The position numbers and the translations under genes are program-made. Shown here piece by piece: positions 1 to 5,134 of a stretch of 5,134 nt of DNA. Position 1 is the first letter of the stretch. Each line of letters begins with the position of its first letter. The stretch comes from a virus (Duplodnaviria > Heunggongvirae > Uroviricota > Caudoviricetes), in IMG/VR virus record IMGVR_UViG_2541047722_000007; one strand, written 5' to 3'. The notes under the pieces were generated by a model. It did not search any database and was not told the origin of the DNA. It saw only the letters and a list, made by a program, of their open reading frames with translations.

Positions 1-179
1 AAGCGGAGGTAATACACCGTAAGAGCTGGAAAAACCGTGCAGAAGTGGAACTGGCCACACTCACGTGGGTGGACTGGTATAACAATCGACGATTGCTGGA
101 AAGGCTGGGCCATACTCCTCCGGCAGAAGCAGAAAAAGCTTATTATGCTTCCATCGGAAACGATGATCTGGCAGCCTGA
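1..179 (+). CDS. insF: IS3 transposase OrfB (InsF), C-terminal fragment; 5' end lies outside the window
   Basis: Open frame from the window edge translating ...AEVIHRKSWKNRAEVELATLTWVDWYNNRRLLERLGHTPPAEAEKAYYASIGNDDLAA*, stop TGA at 177-179. Recognised from memory as the IS3 InsF C-terminus. Confidence 0.85.
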   Translation, partial: AEVIHRKSWKNRAEVELATLTWVDWYNNRRLLERLGHTPPAEAEKAYYASIGNDDLAA

Positions 180-182
180 GTT

Positions 183-221
183 CACAGATAAAACACTCTC
201 CAGGAAACCCGGGGCGGTTCA
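183..221. repeat. IS3 terminal inverted repeat (IRR, ~39 bp)
   Basis: CACAGATAAAACACTCTCCAGGAAACCCGGGGCGGTTCA; its reverse complement TGAACCGCCCCGGGTTTCC... begins the second copy at 5033. Confidence 0.7.
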
Positions 222-309
222 GTGGATGCAAAAGGCGTAAGCCCAATATTTGATACCAGACCTCTCCGCGCCGCCATGATTGTCTTTCTCCTGATGCAGG
301 AGGCCAATA

Positions 310-504
310 ATGCTTAGCCCATCTCAATCCCTTCAATACCTGAAAGAAAGCATAGAGCGGGCTTCAATGTGCACAGAGTGGATTCTATCTAGGTTTAGCG
401 CATACAGAAGATTGCCGGTAAAGGGCATGCCAAGCAAGTCGATGCTGCATATGCAAAAGAATGCGCGCTGGAAGGTATGGCGAGAACACAGGTTATGTGG
501 CTGA
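310..504 (+). CDS. hypothetical 64-aa ORF; possibly the 5' part of a frameshifted ybcO-like gene
   Basis: ATG at 310 preceded by a strong Shine-Dalgarno AGGAGG (297-302, 7-nt spacer); stop TGA 502-504. No recognisable homology by eye; overlaps the frame-0 remnant at 399-527. Confidence 0.3.
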
Positions 505-527
505 AAGAGGGGGTTATTAAGGCGTGA
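399..527 (+). pseudogene. 3' remnant of the gene that normally precedes rusA (ybcO-like); no start codon in frame
   Basis: 43-codon open stretch ...[24 protein letters not shown] with stop TGA 525-527 overlapping the rusA GTG start (GTGA), the overlap I recall for ybcO-rusA. In-frame stops at 390-392 and 396-398 close it upstream. Homology is from memory only. Confidence 0.3.
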
Positions 528-886
528 ATACCTACAGCATCACATTACCCTGGCCTCCGAGCAATAATCGCTATTACCGCCATAATCGCGGGCGCACGCA
601 CGTCAGCGCAGAGGGGCAGGCATACCGCGATAACGTCGCCCGAATCATTAAAAACGCAATGCTGGATATCGGCCTGGCTATGCCTGTGAAAATCCGCATT
701 GAGTGCCACATGCCGGATCGCCGTCGCCGTGACCTGGATAATCTGCAAAAAGCCGCTTTTGACGCACTCACTAAAGCAGGTTTCTGGCTGGATGATGCTC
801 AGGTCGTTGATTACCGCGTTGTGAAGATGCCTGTTACCAAAGGTGGGAGGCTGGAACTGACCATCACCGAAATGGGGAATGAATGA
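524..886 (+). CDS. rusA: RusA, crossover junction endodeoxyribonuclease (Holliday-junction resolvase) of DLP12-type prophage
   Basis: 120-aa product [42 protein letters not shown]... matches RusA as I recall it. GTG start at 524; only a weak/distant SD (GAGG ~13 nt upstream). Confidence 0.93.
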
Positions 887-1023
887 TGTTTGAGTTTAAT
901 ATGGCAGAACTTCTTCGCCACCGCTGGGGGCGTCTGCGCTTATATCGTTTCCTCGGTTCTGTTTTGACCGATTACCGAATACTGAAGAATTACGCCAAAA
1001 CCCTGACAGGAACAGGAGTATGA
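883..1023 (+). CDS. ylcG: YlcG-like small protein (46 aa), DLP12-type prophage
   Basis: ATGATG start overlapping the rusA stop (ATGA); translation [46 protein letters not shown], stop 1021-1023. Below the 60-aa cutoff of the ORF track; recognised from memory. Confidence 0.65.
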
Positions 1024-1108
1024 AGTCAGAGATAACAATCAACTAATACTGTTTTGTTGATTTTTGCTTGTAATTGGCGTTCTGGTCTGATTTTTGTGGA
1101 GTAAGTTG

Positions 1109-1492
1109 ATGCGTGATATTCAGATGGTTCTTGAGCGTTGGGGTGCGTGGGCGGCTAATAATCATGAAGATGTGACCTGGTCGTCCATTGCCGCCGGTTT
1201 TAAGGGATTAATTCCTTCAAAAGTAAAATCTCGCCCGCAATGTTGTGACGATGACGCGATGATCATTTGCGGGTGCATGGCCCGTCTGAAAAAGAACAAC
1301 AGCGATTTACACGATTTATTAGTAGATTATTATGTATGTGGTATGACATTCATGTCACTGGCAAGTAAGCATTGCTGCTCGGATGGTTATATCGGGAAAA
1401 GGTTACAGAAGGCTGAGGGCATAATTGAAGGGATGTTAATGGCATTAGATATCCGGTTAGATATGGATATCGTTGCTAATAATTCTAATTGA
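1109..1492 (+). CDS. quuD: Late-gene antiterminator Q (phage 82 / DLP12 QuuD type), 127 aa
   Basis: [49 protein letters not shown]... ; ATG at 1109 with GGAG SD 7-8 nt upstream. The TTG at 1094 used by the ORF track is probably a spurious extension. Confidence 0.9.
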
Positions 1493-1629
1493 TATGCAAT
1501 TGTTTACTAAAAGTTATTAAAAATGGGGCGTGGAAACGCCCCCAAAATAAAGGGTAATATATAACAGAAGGTTTATATAGTAAGAAGCAAGGTAGTGCTT
1601 CTAAAGGAAGTGGCTTGAGGGCTCCACTT
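1493..1629 (+). promoter_or_regulatory. Putative late promoter (PR') / Q-utilisation region immediately downstream of Q
   Basis: Placed by position only, by analogy with lambdoid phages where PR' and qut follow Q. AT-rich; I could not pin down convincing -35/-10 hexamers. Confidence 0.3.
1525..1542. other. GC-rich hairpin GGGGCG-TGGAAA-CGCCCC; candidate minus-strand terminator or pause/structure element
   Basis: 6-bp GC stem with 6-nt loop. On the minus strand it is followed by a U-rich tract (ATTTTTAATAACTTTT), which could end the porin transcript. Confidence 0.3.
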
Positions 1630-1669
1630 ATATGTTGCGGAGGCAAAGCCTCCCGCAACATATCTTTTT
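1630..1669 (+). terminator. Rho-independent terminator (tR'-like), plus strand
   Basis: ATATGTTGCGGAGGC-AAA-GCCTCCCGCAACATAT: ~15-bp stem with one bulge, followed by CTTTTT. The minus-strand reading has no U tract, so it looks unidirectional. Confidence 0.7.
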
Positions 1670-1680
1670 CGTAAGTCAGA

Positions 1681-2763
1681 TTAGAACTGATAAACCAGAC
1701 CTACAGCGACGATGTCGTCGGTATCAATACCAGCTGTTTTGGTAAACTTACTATCGTCAATTAAGTTGATTTTGTAATCAACAAAAGTGGACATGTTTTT
1801 ATTAAAGTAGTAAGTAGCACCGACATCGACATACTTGACTAAGTCTCGGTCACCATGAACACCAAGGTCTTTACCTTTTGACTGAAGGTAAGCAACAGAT
1901 GGACGCAGACCGAAGTCAAACTGATATTGTGCTACTGCTTCAAAGTTTTGTGCTTTGTTTGCAATATGGTTATTACCAAAAACGGTCATATTCTGAGTTT
2001 CAGAATATGTGGTAGCCAGATAGATATTGTTCGCATCATATTTCAGGCCTGCAGCCCATACTTCCGCATTTTTGCCGGAGGCATTGAATTTGCTCTTACC
2101 ATAGGCGACCTGACCGTCAGTGCGATCTGATTTAGCATAGGTTGCACCCACGCCGAATCCTTCATACTCATAAGTAGTGGAGAAACCGAAACCATCACCA
2201 TTGGCTTCAGTTACGTCAGTGCGGTCATTTTTACCCTGATACTGAGCAGCAAAGTTCAGGCCATCGACCAGACCAAAGAAGTCGTTGTTACGATAAGTTG
2301 CAACACCAGTAGTGCGACCAGTCATGAACACATCTGTTTGGGTCCAGGTATCACCACCGAATTCTGGCAGAACGTCAGTCCACGCACCGATGTCGTATGC
2401 TACACCGTAGTTACGGCCGTAATCGATTGAGCCGTAATCACCAAATTTCAGGCCTGCAAATGCAAGACGGGTTTTGTCTTTGGAAGAACCTTGAGATTCA
2501 GCACGGTTGCCTTTGAATTCATATTCCCACTGACCGAAACCAGTCAGTTGATCGTTGATTTGGGTTTCACCTTTGAAGCCAAGACGGGCATAAGTAGTAT
2601 CACCATCATCTGCATCATTAGAGGAGAAGTAGTGCTTGGCATTAACTTTCCCGTATAGATCCAGCTTGTTACTGTCTTTATTATAAATTTCAGCTGCCTG
2701 AGCAGACATCGCCATCAGTACTGATGCAGCTACAGCAGAAATTGCCACTGTTAATTTTTTCAT
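1681..2763 (-). CDS. nmpC: Outer-membrane porin, NmpC/OmpD/Lc type (OmpC/OmpF family), intact, 360 aa
   Basis: [23 protein letters not shown] signal peptide, then [17 protein letters not shown]...; PEFGGD loop-3 motif; C-terminal ...VGLVYQF beta-barrel signature. ATG at 2763 (the ORF track's upstream start at 2823 adds 20 unlikely residues). Confidence 0.93.
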
Positions 2764-2974
2764 TGTACGCCCTTTTTTTGAACTATTATTAAAAAATGAT
2801 GTCACTGCGCGATAAATATTCATCTAATCAATGTGATTATTTCAAGATGTAAGTTTTAGTTTCTCATTTAATTTGTGAAGTAGATCTCTATTTTTATCTG
2901 AACCTTTTCTATCTAATCCTATTCATGGCTCTTGTCTGAACAAAAATAAATCTATTAGCTAATTTATATTAATG

Positions 2975-2992
2975 GCACTTATTTATAAGTGC
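2975..2992. repeat. Inverted repeat GCACTTAT-TT-ATAAGTGC (8 bp arms, 2-bp spacer); candidate protein-binding site
   Basis: Read directly from the sequence; ~210 bp upstream of the porin start codon. Confidence 0.4.
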
Positions 2993-3131
2993 TCTATAAT
3001 TCTTTAGCTTAATTTAAACAAACTAAAAATAACATCGGAAATTATTAACTGGTTATTTGTTGAAGTTTTCTTATGCATTTGTGGTGGTGTTTTGAACACT
3101 CGGTGGCATTCTCACAAATATCATTTAGTAG

Positions 3132-3145
3132 TTTACGTACGTAAA
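3132..3145. repeat. Perfect 14-bp palindrome TTTACGTACGTAAA; candidate operator
   Basis: Exact self-complementarity read from the sequence; overlaps the candidate -35 of the promoter-like element below. Confidence 0.45.
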
Positions 3146-3159
3146 AAATTGGTTATGCT
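3132..3159 (+). promoter_or_regulatory. Candidate sigma70-type promoter (-35 TTTACG, 16-bp spacer, -10 TATGCT with an upstream TGG)
   Basis: Hexamers found by eye; a start near 3166 would give a ~55-nt transcript ending at the 3190-3222 terminator. Confidence 0.3.
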
Positions 3160-3189
3160 GTTAAGAGTGGTTACTTCGTCACACAGCTT

Positions 3190-3222
3190 AAACCCGCCGT
3201 CGAGCGGGTTTTTCCATTTTTT
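3190..3222 (+). terminator. Rho-independent terminator, plus strand, ~130 bp upstream of the holin
   Basis: AAACCCGC-CGTCGA-GCGGGTTT (8-bp stem) followed by TTTTTCCATTTTTT. No plus-strand gene lies upstream of it. Confidence 0.65.
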
Positions 3223-3351
3223 GAGTCTCGATATTAGCTGATAACCCAATACCTGAGTTATTCACTGACTCCGAATCTGTTACGTTTCTGCCTTTATTGC
3301 GATACGTAGTATCCCCTTAATTTACACCCGCTTTGTCTGCGAGGTGGGGTT

Positions 3352-3567
3352 ATGAAATCCATGGATAAGTTAACAACGGGTGTCGCCTATGGTACCTCAG
3401 CAGGTAGTGCCGGGTACTGGTTTTTACAGTTGCTCGATAAAGTCACGCCCTCACAGTGGGCGGCAATAGGTGTGCTGGGTAGCCTGGTATTTGGCCTGCT
3501 GACGTACCTGACAAACCTTTATTTCAAGATTAAAGAAGATAAGCGCAAGGCTGCGAGAGGTGAATAA
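3352..3567 (+). CDS. essD: Class II holin / pinholin (phage 21 S21-type; DLP12 EssD), 71 aa, with dual-start motif
   Basis: [71 protein letters not shown]; Met1 and Met4 give the antiholin/holin pair; two predicted TMDs; SD GAGGTGGGG upstream. Confidence 0.92.
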
Positions 3568-4064
3568 TGCCTCCATCATTACGAAAAGCCGTTGCTGCTG
3601 CTATTGGTGGCGGAGCAATTGCTATAGCATCAGTGTTAATCACTGGCCCAAGTGGTAACGATGGTCTGGAAGGTGTCAGCTACATACCATACAAAGATAT
3701 TGTTGGTGTATGGACTGTATGTCACGGGCATACAGGAAAAGACATCATGCTCGGTAAAACGTATACCAAAGCAGAATGCAAAGCCCTCCTGAATAAAGAC
3801 CTTGCCACGGTCGCCAGACAAATTAACCCGTACATCAAAGTCGATATACCGGAAACAATGCGCGGCGCTCTTTACTCATTCGTTTACAACGTGGGTGCTG
3901 GCAATTTCAGAACATCGACGCTTCTTCGCAAAATAAACCAGGGCGATATCAAAGGCGCATGTGATCAGCTACGTCGCTGGACATATGCTGGCGGTAAGCA
4001 ATGGAAAGGTCTCATGACTCGTCGTGAGATTGAGCGTGAAATCTGTTTGTGGGGTCAGCAATGA
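3567..4064 (+). CDS. rrrD: SAR (signal-anchor-release) endolysin, lysozyme R21 type (DLP12 RrrD), 165 aa
   Basis: N-terminal Gly/Ala-rich SAR domain [20 protein letters not shown]; E35, D44 and T50 present at the positions of the R21 catalytic triad; ATG overlaps the holin stop (TAATG). Confidence 0.95.
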
Positions 4065-4522
4065 ACAGAGTAACCGCGATTATCTCCGCTCTGGTTATCT
4101 GCATCATCGTCTGCCTGTCATGGGCTGTTAATCATTACCGTGATAACGCCATTACCTACAAAGCCCAGCGCGACAAAAATGCCAGAGAACTGACGCTGGC
4201 GAACGCGGTAATTACTGACATACAGATGCGTCAGCGTGATGTTGCTGCGCTCGATGCAAAATACACGAAGGAGTTAGCTGATGCGAAAGCTGAAAATGAT
4301 GCTCTGCGTGATGATGTTGCCGCTGGTCGTCGTCGGTTGCACATCAAAGCAGTCTGTCAGTCAGTGCGTGAAGCCACCACCGCCTCCGGCGTGGATAATG
4401 CAGCCTCCCCCCGACTGGCAGACACCGCTGAACGGGATTATTTCACCCTCAGAGAGAGGCTGATCACTATGCAAAAACAACTGGAAGGAACCCAGAAGTA
4501 TATTAATGAGCAGTGCAGATAG
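4061..4522 (+). CDS. rzpD: Spanin inner-membrane subunit Rz (i-spanin; DLP12 RzpD), 153 aa
   Basis: [24 protein letters not shown]-terminal TMD followed by a charged, coiled-coil-like periplasmic domain; ATG at 4061 overlaps the endolysin stop (ATGA). The GTG at 4049 in the ORF track is probably an extension. Confidence 0.9.
4281..4463 (+). CDS. rzoD: Spanin outer-membrane lipoprotein Rz1 (o-spanin; DLP12 RzoD), 60 aa, fully embedded in Rz in the +1 frame
   Basis: [20 protein letters not shown] (lipobox ending in Cys) followed by a proline-rich mature region (PPPPP, PPP); AAGGAG SD 8 nt upstream of the ATG. Confidence 0.85.
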
Positions 4523-4526
4523 AGCT

Positions 4527-4542
4527 GCCCATATCGATGGGC
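4527..4542. other. Short hairpin GCCCAT-ATCG-ATGGGC between the convergent Rz and bor stops; weak bidirectional terminator candidate
   Basis: 6-bp stem, 4-nt loop, no strong U tract on either side. Confidence 0.25.
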
Positions 4543-4553
4543 AACTCATGCAA

Positions 4554-4847
4554 TTATTGTGAGCAATACACACGCGCTTCCAGCGGAGTATAAATGCCTA
4601 AAGTAATAAAACCGAGCAATCCATTTACGAATGTTTGCTGGGTTTCTGTTTTAACAACATTTTCTGCACCACCACAAATTTTTGCTGCATCGACAGTTTT
4701 CTTCTGCCCAATTCCCGAAACGAAGAAATGATGGGTGATGGTTTCCTTTGGTGTTACTGCTGTAGGTTTGTTTCCAACAGTAAACGTCTGTTGAGCACAT
4801 CCTGTAATAAGCATTGCCAGAGCGGCAGAAAACAACATTTTTTTCAT
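4554..4847 (-). CDS. borD: Bor lipoprotein (serum-resistance moron of lambdoid phages; DLP12 BorD), 97 aa
   Basis: MKKMLFSAALAMLITGCAQQTFTV... lipobox LITGC; C-terminal ...GIYTPLEARVYCSQ; ATG at 4847 with AGGA SD. The ORF track's start at 4895 is a 16-codon extension. Confidence 0.92.
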   Translation of the reverse strand: MKKMLFSAALAMLITGCAQQTFTVGNKPTAVTPKETITHHFFVSGIGQKKTVDAAKICGGAENVVKTETQQTFVNGLLGFITLGIYTPLEARVYCSQ

Positions 4848-5032
4848 CTTATTATCCTGCATTGTTAAAAACGGCAGAATCCTATGTGACAACAATTAAA
4901 CGATAGTTAAATGGATTGATGAAAATTAAAACTACACAGGTGGGCTCAGACTATTGGAGGAAGTTGGGGACACTCAGAATCCTGTGGAATGAAATAAACC
5001 GGTCTATCCGTCCATTACCCTTTTAGCTGCGC

Positions 5033-5134
5033 TGAACCGCCCCGGGTTTCCTGGAGAGTGTTTTATCTGTGAACTCAGGCTGCCAGATCATCGTTTCCGA
5101 TGGAAGCATAATAAGCTTTTTCTGCTTCTGCCGG
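5033..5134 (-). mobile_element. IS3 right-hand end, partial, inverted relative to the copy at 1-221; element continues beyond the 3' window edge
   Basis: 5033-5134 is the exact reverse complement of 120-221 (102 bp); starts TGAACCGCCCCGGG at 5033. Confidence 0.85.
5075..5134 (-). CDS. insF: IS3 transposase OrfB (InsF), C-terminal fragment (19 codons plus stop); 5' end outside the window
   Basis: Reverse complement encodes ...PAEAEKAYYASIGNDDLAA*, identical to the left-copy terminus. Confidence 0.8.
   Translation of the reverse strand, partial: PAEAEKAYYASIGNDDLAA

Follow-up and report, generated by a model that had tools for sequence, protein, structure and literature searches.

A complete lc/nmpC-type porin gene of mosaic structure between the antiterminator and lysis genes of a lambdoid prophage

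A porin gene that lies antisense between the Q antiterminator and the lysis genes of a tailed phage raises the question of whether it is a working phage gene, a silent remnant, a gene of the bacterial host or part of a module that the host has retained. We addressed this question for the porin gene of the window, by which we mean the whole 5,134-nucleotide stretch of DNA analysed (IMG/VR virus record IMGVR_UViG_2541047722_000007, Caudoviricetes). A six-frame ORF list contains a single long minus-strand ORF at 1681..2823, and the porin coding sequence, 1681..2763 on the minus strand, is this ORF read from an internal ATG (MKKLTVAIS...). It comprises 1083 nt, namely 360 codons and a TAA at 1683-1681. 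The parts of the gene discussed below are as follows.

1681..2763, minus strand: porin coding sequence, NmpC/Lc type (360 aa precursor; named ‘porin OmpC’ by PGAP, WP_000737271.1)
2695..2763, minus strand: signal peptide, 23 codons (cleavage between AQA and AEIYNK; same as the PA-2 lc sig_peptide)
1684..2277, minus strand: diverged 3' block, codons 163-360, loops L4-L8, recombinant segment (identity windows and dS)

The initial annotation had described a complete porin ORF with a signal peptide, a PEFGGD loop motif and a C-terminal aromatic residue, and each of these elements is present. The coordinates given for the ORF are correct to the base, as judged by the ORF list, PGAP and a full-length Pfam match; PGAP annotates a CDS of exactly this extent (WP_000737271.1) in identical genomes. 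Residues 1-23 match the signal peptide annotated for PA-2 lc without any difference, and the mature chains of OmpC, OmpF and PhoE deposited in the PDB begin at query residue 24. PEFGGD occupies residues 133-138 and is invariant among Lc, NmpC, OmpC, PhoE, OmpF and OmpN. The C-terminal beta-signal reads ...VAVGLVYQF-stop, with Y358, Q359 and the aromatic F360 likewise invariant. No frameshift, internal stop, truncation or insertion sequence, IS5 included, was found in the porin ORF, either in the ORF list or in an alignment of seven sequences that includes functional homologues, and the reading frame is continuous throughout. A longer, 380-codon reading from the upstream ATG at 2823, which appears in older records (ev207, UTI89, APEC O1), was rejected because PGAP and the PA-2 record both start at the MKK codon, because an AAGGG ribosome-binding site precedes 2763, because 20 additional residues would leave the signal peptide buried and because a 1-nt indel in PA-2 shifts the upstream ATG out of frame.

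The Pfam Porin_1 profile (PF00267) matches residues 29-360 over positions 1-337 of its 337 (504.7 bits, E = 1.9e-151), and this full-length match is therefore far beyond chance. The seven aligned proteins were the window porin, PA-2 Lc, a K-12 NmpC rebuilt free of IS5, and K-12 OmpC, PhoE, OmpF and OmpN. Amino acid identity to the window porin is 92% for Lc, 92% for the rebuilt NmpC, 68% for OmpN, 66% for OmpC, 65% for PhoE and 63% for OmpF; the window porin is closer to Lc and NmpC than to any chromosomal porin compared. Around the loop-3 constriction, P133-D138, D130, E134, K39, R60 and R150 are invariant across all seven sequences, and R99 is present in the window porin at a position where PA-2 Lc alone has histidine. 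Query residues 24-360 match the solved structures of OmpC, OmpF, PhoE and OmpK36 at full length. Because identity to K-12 OmpC, PhoE and OmpF amounts to 63-66% and the matches to their structures are full length, the window porin is predicted to form trimers of 16-strand beta-barrels that act as outer-membrane channels. The chromosomal porins OmpC, PhoE, OmpF and OmpN thus share with it the Pfam family, a full-length alignment, the constriction residues, PEFGGD and the C-terminal signal, but they are only 63-68% identical to it and differ in locus and regulation. PhoE differs further within loop 3, where the lysine of its FMTKR segment is replaced by glycine in the window porin (FMTGR); this lysine underlies the anion selectivity of PhoE. 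Some phage annotators have labelled the protein ‘OmpD’.

The Lc/NmpC type named in the initial annotation agrees with the 92% amino acid identity to both proteins, with the same synteny and with flanking DNA that is 92-96% identical. The lc gene of phage PA-2 (GenBank J02580) lies in the same place and runs in the same direction between Q and the lysis genes and has the conserved 3' UTR and terminator, and its product differs from the window porin at only 2 of the first 181 residues. In contrast to the 360 residues of the window porin, Lc has 365, and the shorter length of the window porin stems solely from the in-frame loss of 3 codons in L4 and of 2 in L5. In prophage DLP12 of K-12, nmpC (b0553) has the same neighbours, with rusA, ylcG and quuD on one side and essD, rrrD, rzpD/rzoD and borD on the other. 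The K-12 gene was described in the initial annotation as disrupted by IS5, and the MG1655 annotation, the junction sequence and the record of phage 434B all agree. MG1655 nmpC is annotated as a 1040-nt fragment, IS5B and a 58-nt fragment, the junctions show a CTAA target duplication, and the frame passes from ...NDFT into IS5. Phage 434B, which carries this K-12 region, is annotated with an ‘IS5 insertion after codon 346’. When the two MG1655 fragments are joined, they encode a protein of 365 residues that is nearly identical to Lc. Whereas IS5B after codon 346 removes the last beta-strand and the C-terminal Phe from DLP12 NmpC, the window copy is uninterrupted and has another allele of the 3' half.

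The PA-2/K-12 allele was rejected as the identity of the window gene, which is instead a mosaic allele with a deeply diverged 3' half. A comparison with PA-2 lc in 60-nt windows gives a nucleotide identity of 93-100% for codons 1-162 and the two flanks, whereas codons 163-360 are 57-88% identical. Nei-Gojobori estimates against PA-2 lc give a dS of 0.10 and a dN of 0.005 for the 5' part, in contrast to a dS of about 2.0, which is saturated, and a dN of 0.093 for the 198 codons of the 3' part. Differing alignment columns are concentrated (28/36) in the indel-prone third of the family alignment columns, which we take to be external loops L4-L8 as seen in the OmpF, OmpC and PhoE structures. PhiR70_1 has a third allele, which shares its 5' part and L4 with the window gene but differs in L5, L7 and L8. 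The contrast in divergence between the 5' and 3' parts, together with this third allele, therefore indicates that diverged lineages of prophage porins have exchanged the 3' half as a single block. Such an exchange is an allele-level detail and is typical of surface proteins.

The surroundings of the gene are those of a lambdoid phage. The following plus-strand features flank the porin gene.

1109..1492, plus strand: Q-type antiterminator QuuD, 127 aa (Phage_antitermQ, 7.7e-54; PGAP)
1630..1670, plus strand: terminator-like hairpin and CTTTTT directly downstream of Q (fold -22.9 kcal/mol, z = -4.7)
2972-3000, plus strand: candidate late promoter, ATGGCA-17-TATAAT (promoter scan)
3190-3221, plus strand: intrinsic terminator upstream of the holin gene, stem 3190-3211, T-run to 3221 (terminator scan)
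3352..4522, plus strand: lysis cassette (Pfam, PGAP), consisting of the next four genes
3352-3567, plus strand: P21-type holin essD (Pfam, PGAP)
3567-4064, plus strand: endolysin (lysozyme) rrrD (Pfam, PGAP)
4049/4061-4522, plus strand: spanin Rz, rzpD (Pfam, PGAP)
4281-4463, plus strand: spanin Rz1, rzoD (Pfam, PGAP)

The ORF list and Pfam confirm the antisense placement that had been proposed, with the porin on the minus strand and both Q and the lysis genes on the plus strand. The same Q-porin-S order and orientation are found in PA-2, DLP12, ev207, PhiR70_1, ev243 and 434B. The Phage_antitermQ ORF has alternative starts (1094/1109-1492), and QuuD gives a distant match to Q21 structures (4e-8); further Pfam matches among the neighbouring ORFs of the window are to RusA, YlcG and Bor. 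Directly beyond Q, the plus-strand palindrome at 1630-1663 followed by CTTTTT is terminator-like for transcripts leaving Q, and read on the minus strand the same palindrome is the first stem of the IpeX-like RNA described below. The terminator scan missed the hairpin at 1630-1670, probably owing to a bulge in its stem.

The late promoter of the phage bears on whether the porin belongs to the late operon. The promoter scan found no promoter-like site on the plus strand between Q and the porin. Since a plus-strand promoter-like site (2972-3000) and a terminator (3190-3221) fall between the porin and the holin gene, the arrangement suggests that the late promoter lies there as well, leaving the porin upstream of pR' and outside the late operon. 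The two elements are a possible pR'/tR' pair, of which PA-2 and K-12 both retain the terminator. No promoter is annotated between the porin and holin genes in the curated record of 434B, and a paper on DLP12 gives only ‘-121 to +650’.

Transcription of the porin itself would begin in the spacer on the holin side, where four minus-strand features were located.

2764..2900, minus strand: porin promoter/leader region (93-95% identical to PA-2 and K-12)
2772-2776, minus strand: ribosome-binding site AAGGG (from the sequence)
2871-2891, minus strand: proximal CRP-type site TGTGA-N6-TCTCT (annotated in J02580 at the aligned position)
3166..3186, minus strand: distal CRP-type site TGTGA-N6-AACCA (from the PA-2 record; invariant in a three-way alignment)

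This 588-nt upstream spacer is very AT-rich (27-30% GC); aligned with its PA-2 and K-12 counterparts it has a mean column identity of 96%, and it is about 93-96% identical to that of PA-2. The window retains the two CRP sites of the PA-2 annotation, the distal one 403-423 nt upstream of the porin start codon. K-12 PnmpC, a promoter that has been studied experimentally, aligns with the promoter region of the window, in which the exact -10 element and transcription start are putative. The K-12 nmpC promoter was mapped by 5' RACE and is activated by CRP and repressed by OmpR, IHF and MprA.

Downstream of the stop codon lies a further element that appears to belong to the porin transcript.

1519..1680, minus strand: structured porin 3' UTR, putative IpeX counterpart (terminator scan, fold and alignment)

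The 3' UTR is 162 nt long to the end of the T-run and is closed by an intrinsic terminator at 1542-1519 (stem 1542-1525, T-run 1524-1519), with the sequence GGGGCGTTTCCACGCCCC and then ATTTTT. The minus-strand segment 1515-1680 has a minimum free energy of -53.6 kcal/mol, with z = -6.4 against shuffled sequences. The 188-nt downstream spacer shows 87% mean column identity with PA-2 and K-12 and is 92-93% identical to PA-2 in 60-nt windows; the 3' UTR aligns throughout with the DLP12 and PA-2 sequence downstream of nmpC and lc. A scan of the whole window against Rfam at E <= 1 returned two chance-level matches only, and because it gave none to any family at the 3' UTR, it is by position, size and conservation that we infer this segment to be the counterpart of the DLP12 small RNA IpeX. 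In published accounts, IpeX is described as an RNA of ~167 nt that comes from the 3'-terminal part of the phage porin mRNA and lowers OmpC/OmpF, and these sources disagree on whether it acts by base pairing. Both RNAs would lie directly after the porin stop codon, converge with Q and use the same terminator, and their sizes are similar (~162 nt here versus the 167 nt given in the same accounts). They differ by several substitutions in stems and loops of the window counterpart. In K-12, moreover, IS5 separates IpeX from the porin promoter, whereas the counterpart in the window is contiguous with an intact porin gene. The porin unit thus probably includes an IpeX-type small RNA in its 3' UTR, as judged from these sequence comparisons.

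Public genomes place this allele in many strains and in several phages. The porin CDS is 100% identical in nucleotide sequence in CFT073, Nissle 1917, ATCC 25922, UM146, ABU 83972, NU14, APEC O18 and many others. E. coli genome records with a copy of the porin number 1225 at an identity of at least 99%, 319 at 95-99% and 282 at 90-95%, and only these bands of at least 90% count as the allele, the 80-90% band (1313 records) being one that may mix PA-2/K-12-type alleles with paralogues. Identity is also 100% in phages ev207, ev017, PhiR57_1 and PhiR63_2, and 99.7-99.9% in Perceval (99.8%), 4A7, 2G7b, D2 and others. Phages ev207, ev017 and PhiR57_1 are inducible and were recovered as free particles. 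At least 1000 contigs encode the exact protein, which is called ‘porin OmpC’ or ‘outer membrane porin protein LC’, and the annotated contexts in FY26 and CFT073 carry the same accession, WP_000737271.1. B2 strains contain a second match to the porin query, and CFT073 has another gene named nmpC, c2348. Over its full length the window is 99.9-100% identical to APEC and B2 genomes, and positions 1-5034 match CFT073 with 100% nucleotide identity.

The ends of the window raise the possibility that the gene is no longer simply part of a phage. Inverted arms of 116 nt, 96% complementary, lie at 120-235 and 5019-5134, bracketing the rusA-iss segment, and the genomes closest to the window carry a prophage that lacks part of its replication region and has three IS3-family copies; in FY26 a truncated replication gene and a partial ninX lie next to IS copies. 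From this evidence one could read the 4.8-kb rusA-iss segment between inverted IS3-family copies as a domesticated host module, kept, and possibly moved, for the sake of the porin and Iss irrespective of a phage life cycle, both of these being proteins that are encoded antiparallel to their neighbours and have been detected as proteins in CFT073. The same module is, however, 100% identical in ev207, ev017 and PhiR57_1, which form free particles, and the CFT073 module has one IS copy only, located further upstream. We consider domestication possible but, on this balance, somewhat doubtful; it complements the reading of the gene as a functional phage porin gene and is specific to this lineage. 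Regulation of the porin in this host could differ, its prophage being interrupted by the IS3-family copies.

Whether a gene in such surroundings is expressed can be judged from published data on closely matching alleles. A supplementary table for CFT073 identifies C_RS07310 as c1560/nmpC (WP_000737271.1), whose protein is identical to the window porin. Its mRNA rises at 37 C relative to 23 C with a log2FC of 6.45 (adjusted p 2.4e-39), which places c1560 among the genes most strongly induced at 37 C; the protein assigned to c1560 rises with a log2FC of 2.67 in this strain, which also has the second nmpC-named gene. In prophage Perceval of LF82, NmpC is a listed moron, expressed 10-fold above the local background in an overnight LB culture. 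According to a review, 89% of UPEC isolates have NmpC in their outer-membrane proteome. Detection of the protein had been proposed as a check on the gene; with the CFT073 data, this expression test has thus already been done on the identical allele. CFT073 c1560 and Perceval NmpC resemble the window gene in having an identical protein or 99.8% nucleotide identity over the porin CDS. The CFT073 prophage differs from the window in keeping ninB, a methylase gene, ninE and ninX upstream and in having no IS after iss, whereas IS3-family ends flank the segment in the window.

These data weigh heavily against a gene that is intact but quiescent, that is, a silent or decaying remnant like nmpC of K-12 and B that makes no contribution to the outer membrane. 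Such a state would fit the name ‘quiescent porin gene’ given to nmpC of laboratory strains, as well as the low GC content of the upstream spacer, which is typical of silenced foreign DNA, and the partly lost replication region and three IS3-family copies of the closest genomes. Yet in CFT073 the identical gene shows strong induction at 37 C and its protein is detected, the LF82 copy is expressed in culture, most UPEC outer-membrane proteomes contain NmpC, and the reading frame, signal peptide, pore residues, promoter region and terminator of the window gene are all intact. We therefore regard quiescence as highly improbable.

Finally, that the gene is host ompC or a duplicate of it, and no phage gene, can be dismissed almost entirely, since the PGAP name ompC and a score of 521 bits against the 484-bit cut-off of the NCBIfam ‘porin OmpC’ model, which defines a subfamily and not an equivalog, are outweighed by an identity of 66% to K-12 OmpC versus 92% to Lc and NmpC, by the location of the gene between Q and holin in prophages and in free inducible phages, and by the position of the sequence, which is not that of the ompC locus next to micF in the window or in the two identical genomes examined. 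The NCBIfam equivalog models score below their cut-offs (503.7 against 599 for PhoE; 481.5 against 583 for OmpF). At 66% identity to K-12 OmpC and in a prophage context, the gene is not an ortholog of chromosomal ompC.

Taken together, the porin gene of the window is best explained as a functional lambdoid-prophage porin gene of the kind known as lc in PA-2 and nmpC in DLP12, forming a self-contained unit of lysogenic conversion, or ‘moron’; we assign this reading a probability of about 0.92. As regards its character as a moron, a minus-strand terminator was found, the promoter region aligns with PnmpC, and expression in lysogens is known from the literature. The porin appears dispensable for the phage, because some lambdoid phages share the holin gene without the porin and spacer and because 434B is viable with nmpC::IS5.

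How the unit would work can be outlined from its parts. In the lysogen, a sigma-70 promoter that belongs to the porin gene and lies in the AT-rich spacer would start leftward transcription, controlled by catabolite status, osmolarity and temperature. The 360-residue precursor would be exported by Sec and cleaved after AQA, and the C-terminal ...VYQF signal would direct its insertion by BAM as a trimeric general-diffusion porin with the usual loop-3 constriction. The transcript is predicted to run ~160 nt beyond the stop codon, through the structured 3' UTR to the intrinsic terminator, and the 3' UTR may give rise to an RNA of the IpeX type that limits how much OmpC and OmpF is made. Overall, a phage-encoded porin would partly take the place of the major porins of the host, with altered permeability, surface antigenicity and receptors for other phages. 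Work by Schnaitman and colleagues in the 1970s reportedly found that PA-2 lysogeny replaces OmpC, the PA-2 receptor, with Lc and so leads to superinfection exclusion. The allele in the window is predicted to have IpeX activity, and receptor exclusion is likewise predicted for its host.

A more speculative extension concerns B2 extraintestinal E. coli, where an intact nmpC-ipeX unit, and not OmpR, MicF or MicC, may drive a porin switch at body temperature. On this proposal, which we think rather unlikely, the prophage promoter would become active at 37 C, where nmpC mRNA rises by about 6.5 log2, an IpeX-like 3' UTR on the same transcript would lower OmpC, and the exchange of L4-L8 among prophage alleles would reflect selection by phages or antibodies on a porin that has become a major protein of the host surface. 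If true, such a switch would explain the reversal of OmpC thermoregulation in CFT073 relative to K-12, where IS5 uncouples IpeX from the promoter. That thermoregulation of OmpC in CFT073 is the reverse of that in K-12 has been published, in a paper that makes no mention of IpeX.

The gene family, its location, the K-12 IS5 lesion, the associated small RNA and expression of the exact allele are already known from the literature or from public annotation. Because the gene, its position, the K-12 IS5 lesion and expression in uropathogens have all been published, the present finding mainly confirms that the annotation is correct. Its biological weight lies in what prophage porins do: they alter the entry of antibiotics and nutrients, the docking of phages and colicins, and visibility to the immune system. 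Many pathogenic E. coli carry this allele, among them CFT073, Nissle 1917 and avian strains, and its RefSeq label ‘ompC’ can mislead surveys of porin loss or resistance. The linked IpeX-like RNA could, moreover, offer a cheap explanation for strain differences in the regulation of OmpC.

The porin gene carried by this prophage is a recombinant, with a junction between segments 2278-2763 (minus strand) and 1684-2277 (minus strand). Compared with lc, the porin gene of lambdoid phage PA-2, codons 1-162 have a dS of 0.10 and codons 163-360 one of about 2.0, a saturated value; identity to PA-2 climbs back to about 93% in the DNA just past the porin stop codon. A third porin allele, found in phage PhiR70_1, shares the 5' part of the gene and external loop L4 with the window and differs from it in loops L5, L7, and L8.

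An upstream in-frame ATG extends the porin reading through 2764-2823 (minus strand) to 380 amino acids, and the gene is annotated in this form in the older records of ev207, UTI89, and APEC O1. In PA-2 the frame of this N-terminal extension is disrupted by a 1-nt indel, which argues that the longer reading is an annotation artefact. Naming of the gene also calls for care. In a search of the E. coli genome collection, the porin query finds two matching places in most B2 genomes, and in the CFT073 paper c2348 is named as a further ‘nmpC precursor’, likewise induced at 37 °C. Because RefSeq labels the prophage porin gene ‘ompC’, more than one gene may be listed as ‘ompC’ in B2 genomes with two such places.

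On its 3' side, the porin transcript, which would include the structured IpeX-like RNA of its 3' UTR (minus strand, 3' end at about 1519), and the transcript of the antiterminator gene Q (plus strand) would run towards each other and share about 150 nt (1519-1670). Within this overlap lies the following feature:

1630-1670, plus strand: terminator-like hairpin for the Q transcript, overlapping the porin/IpeX-like transcript

The palindrome at 1630-1663 would play a dual role: it would form the stem of the plus-strand terminator and, in the minus-strand porin/IpeX-like RNA, the first stem.

On the other side of the gene, the spacer between porin and holin is 90-100% conserved except at 2995-3058, where identity to PA-2 and PhiR70_1 falls to 73-75%. 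This stretch lies directly downstream of a plus-strand TATAAT (2995-3000), in a region of 27-30% GC; should the TATAAT belong to the late promoter, a site for Q loading or pausing would be expected here. Further along, window positions 3136-3212 hold a 60-77-nt piece common to Shigella phages SfII and SfIV at 90-95% identity, encompassing the distal CRP-type site and a plus-strand terminator (3190-3211). Neither phage has any further match to the porin-holin query used, and with the Q-region query the match of SfIV is limited to the first 64 nt. The sequence comparison thus hints that this terminator moves between phages as a regulatory element of its own.

The outer parts of the window contain the following features:

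about 1-235 and 5019-5134, inverted copies of one end: IS3-family element ends, with 116-nt arms at 120-235 and 5019-5134
223-531, plus strand: remnants of ninX and a DUF1364 (ybcO-like) gene, C-terminal fragments only, between the IS end and rusA
4554-4847, minus strand: gene for a 97-aa Bor-family lipoprotein, named Iss (increased serum survival) by PGAP; second antiparallel gene, after the spanins

A protein identical to this Iss (WP_001298464.1, c1564) is listed in the CFT073 supplementary table as up at 37 °C at both the mRNA and the protein level. The two inverted arms are 96% complementary over their 116 nt, and the 4.8-kb rusA-to-iss segment between the IS3-family ends thus has a composite-transposon-like arrangement. 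FY26, a near-identical genome, carries three copies of the same IS; its PGAP annotation records both the ninX and the DUF1364 remnants as partial pseudogenes. Beside these IS copies, FY26 has only truncated forms of the replication gene and of ninX, so the prophage is probably defective. CFT073, in contrast, holds the same module with a single IS copy, located further upstream, and none after iss.

The module also occurs in phage 434B, a laboratory derivative of phage 434 (OL657227.1, 1159-3455), in its K-12 DLP12 version including nmpC::IS5. The record labels this stretch ‘approximate region of 434 nonhomology’, and 434B apparently gained the module through recombination with the cryptic prophage.
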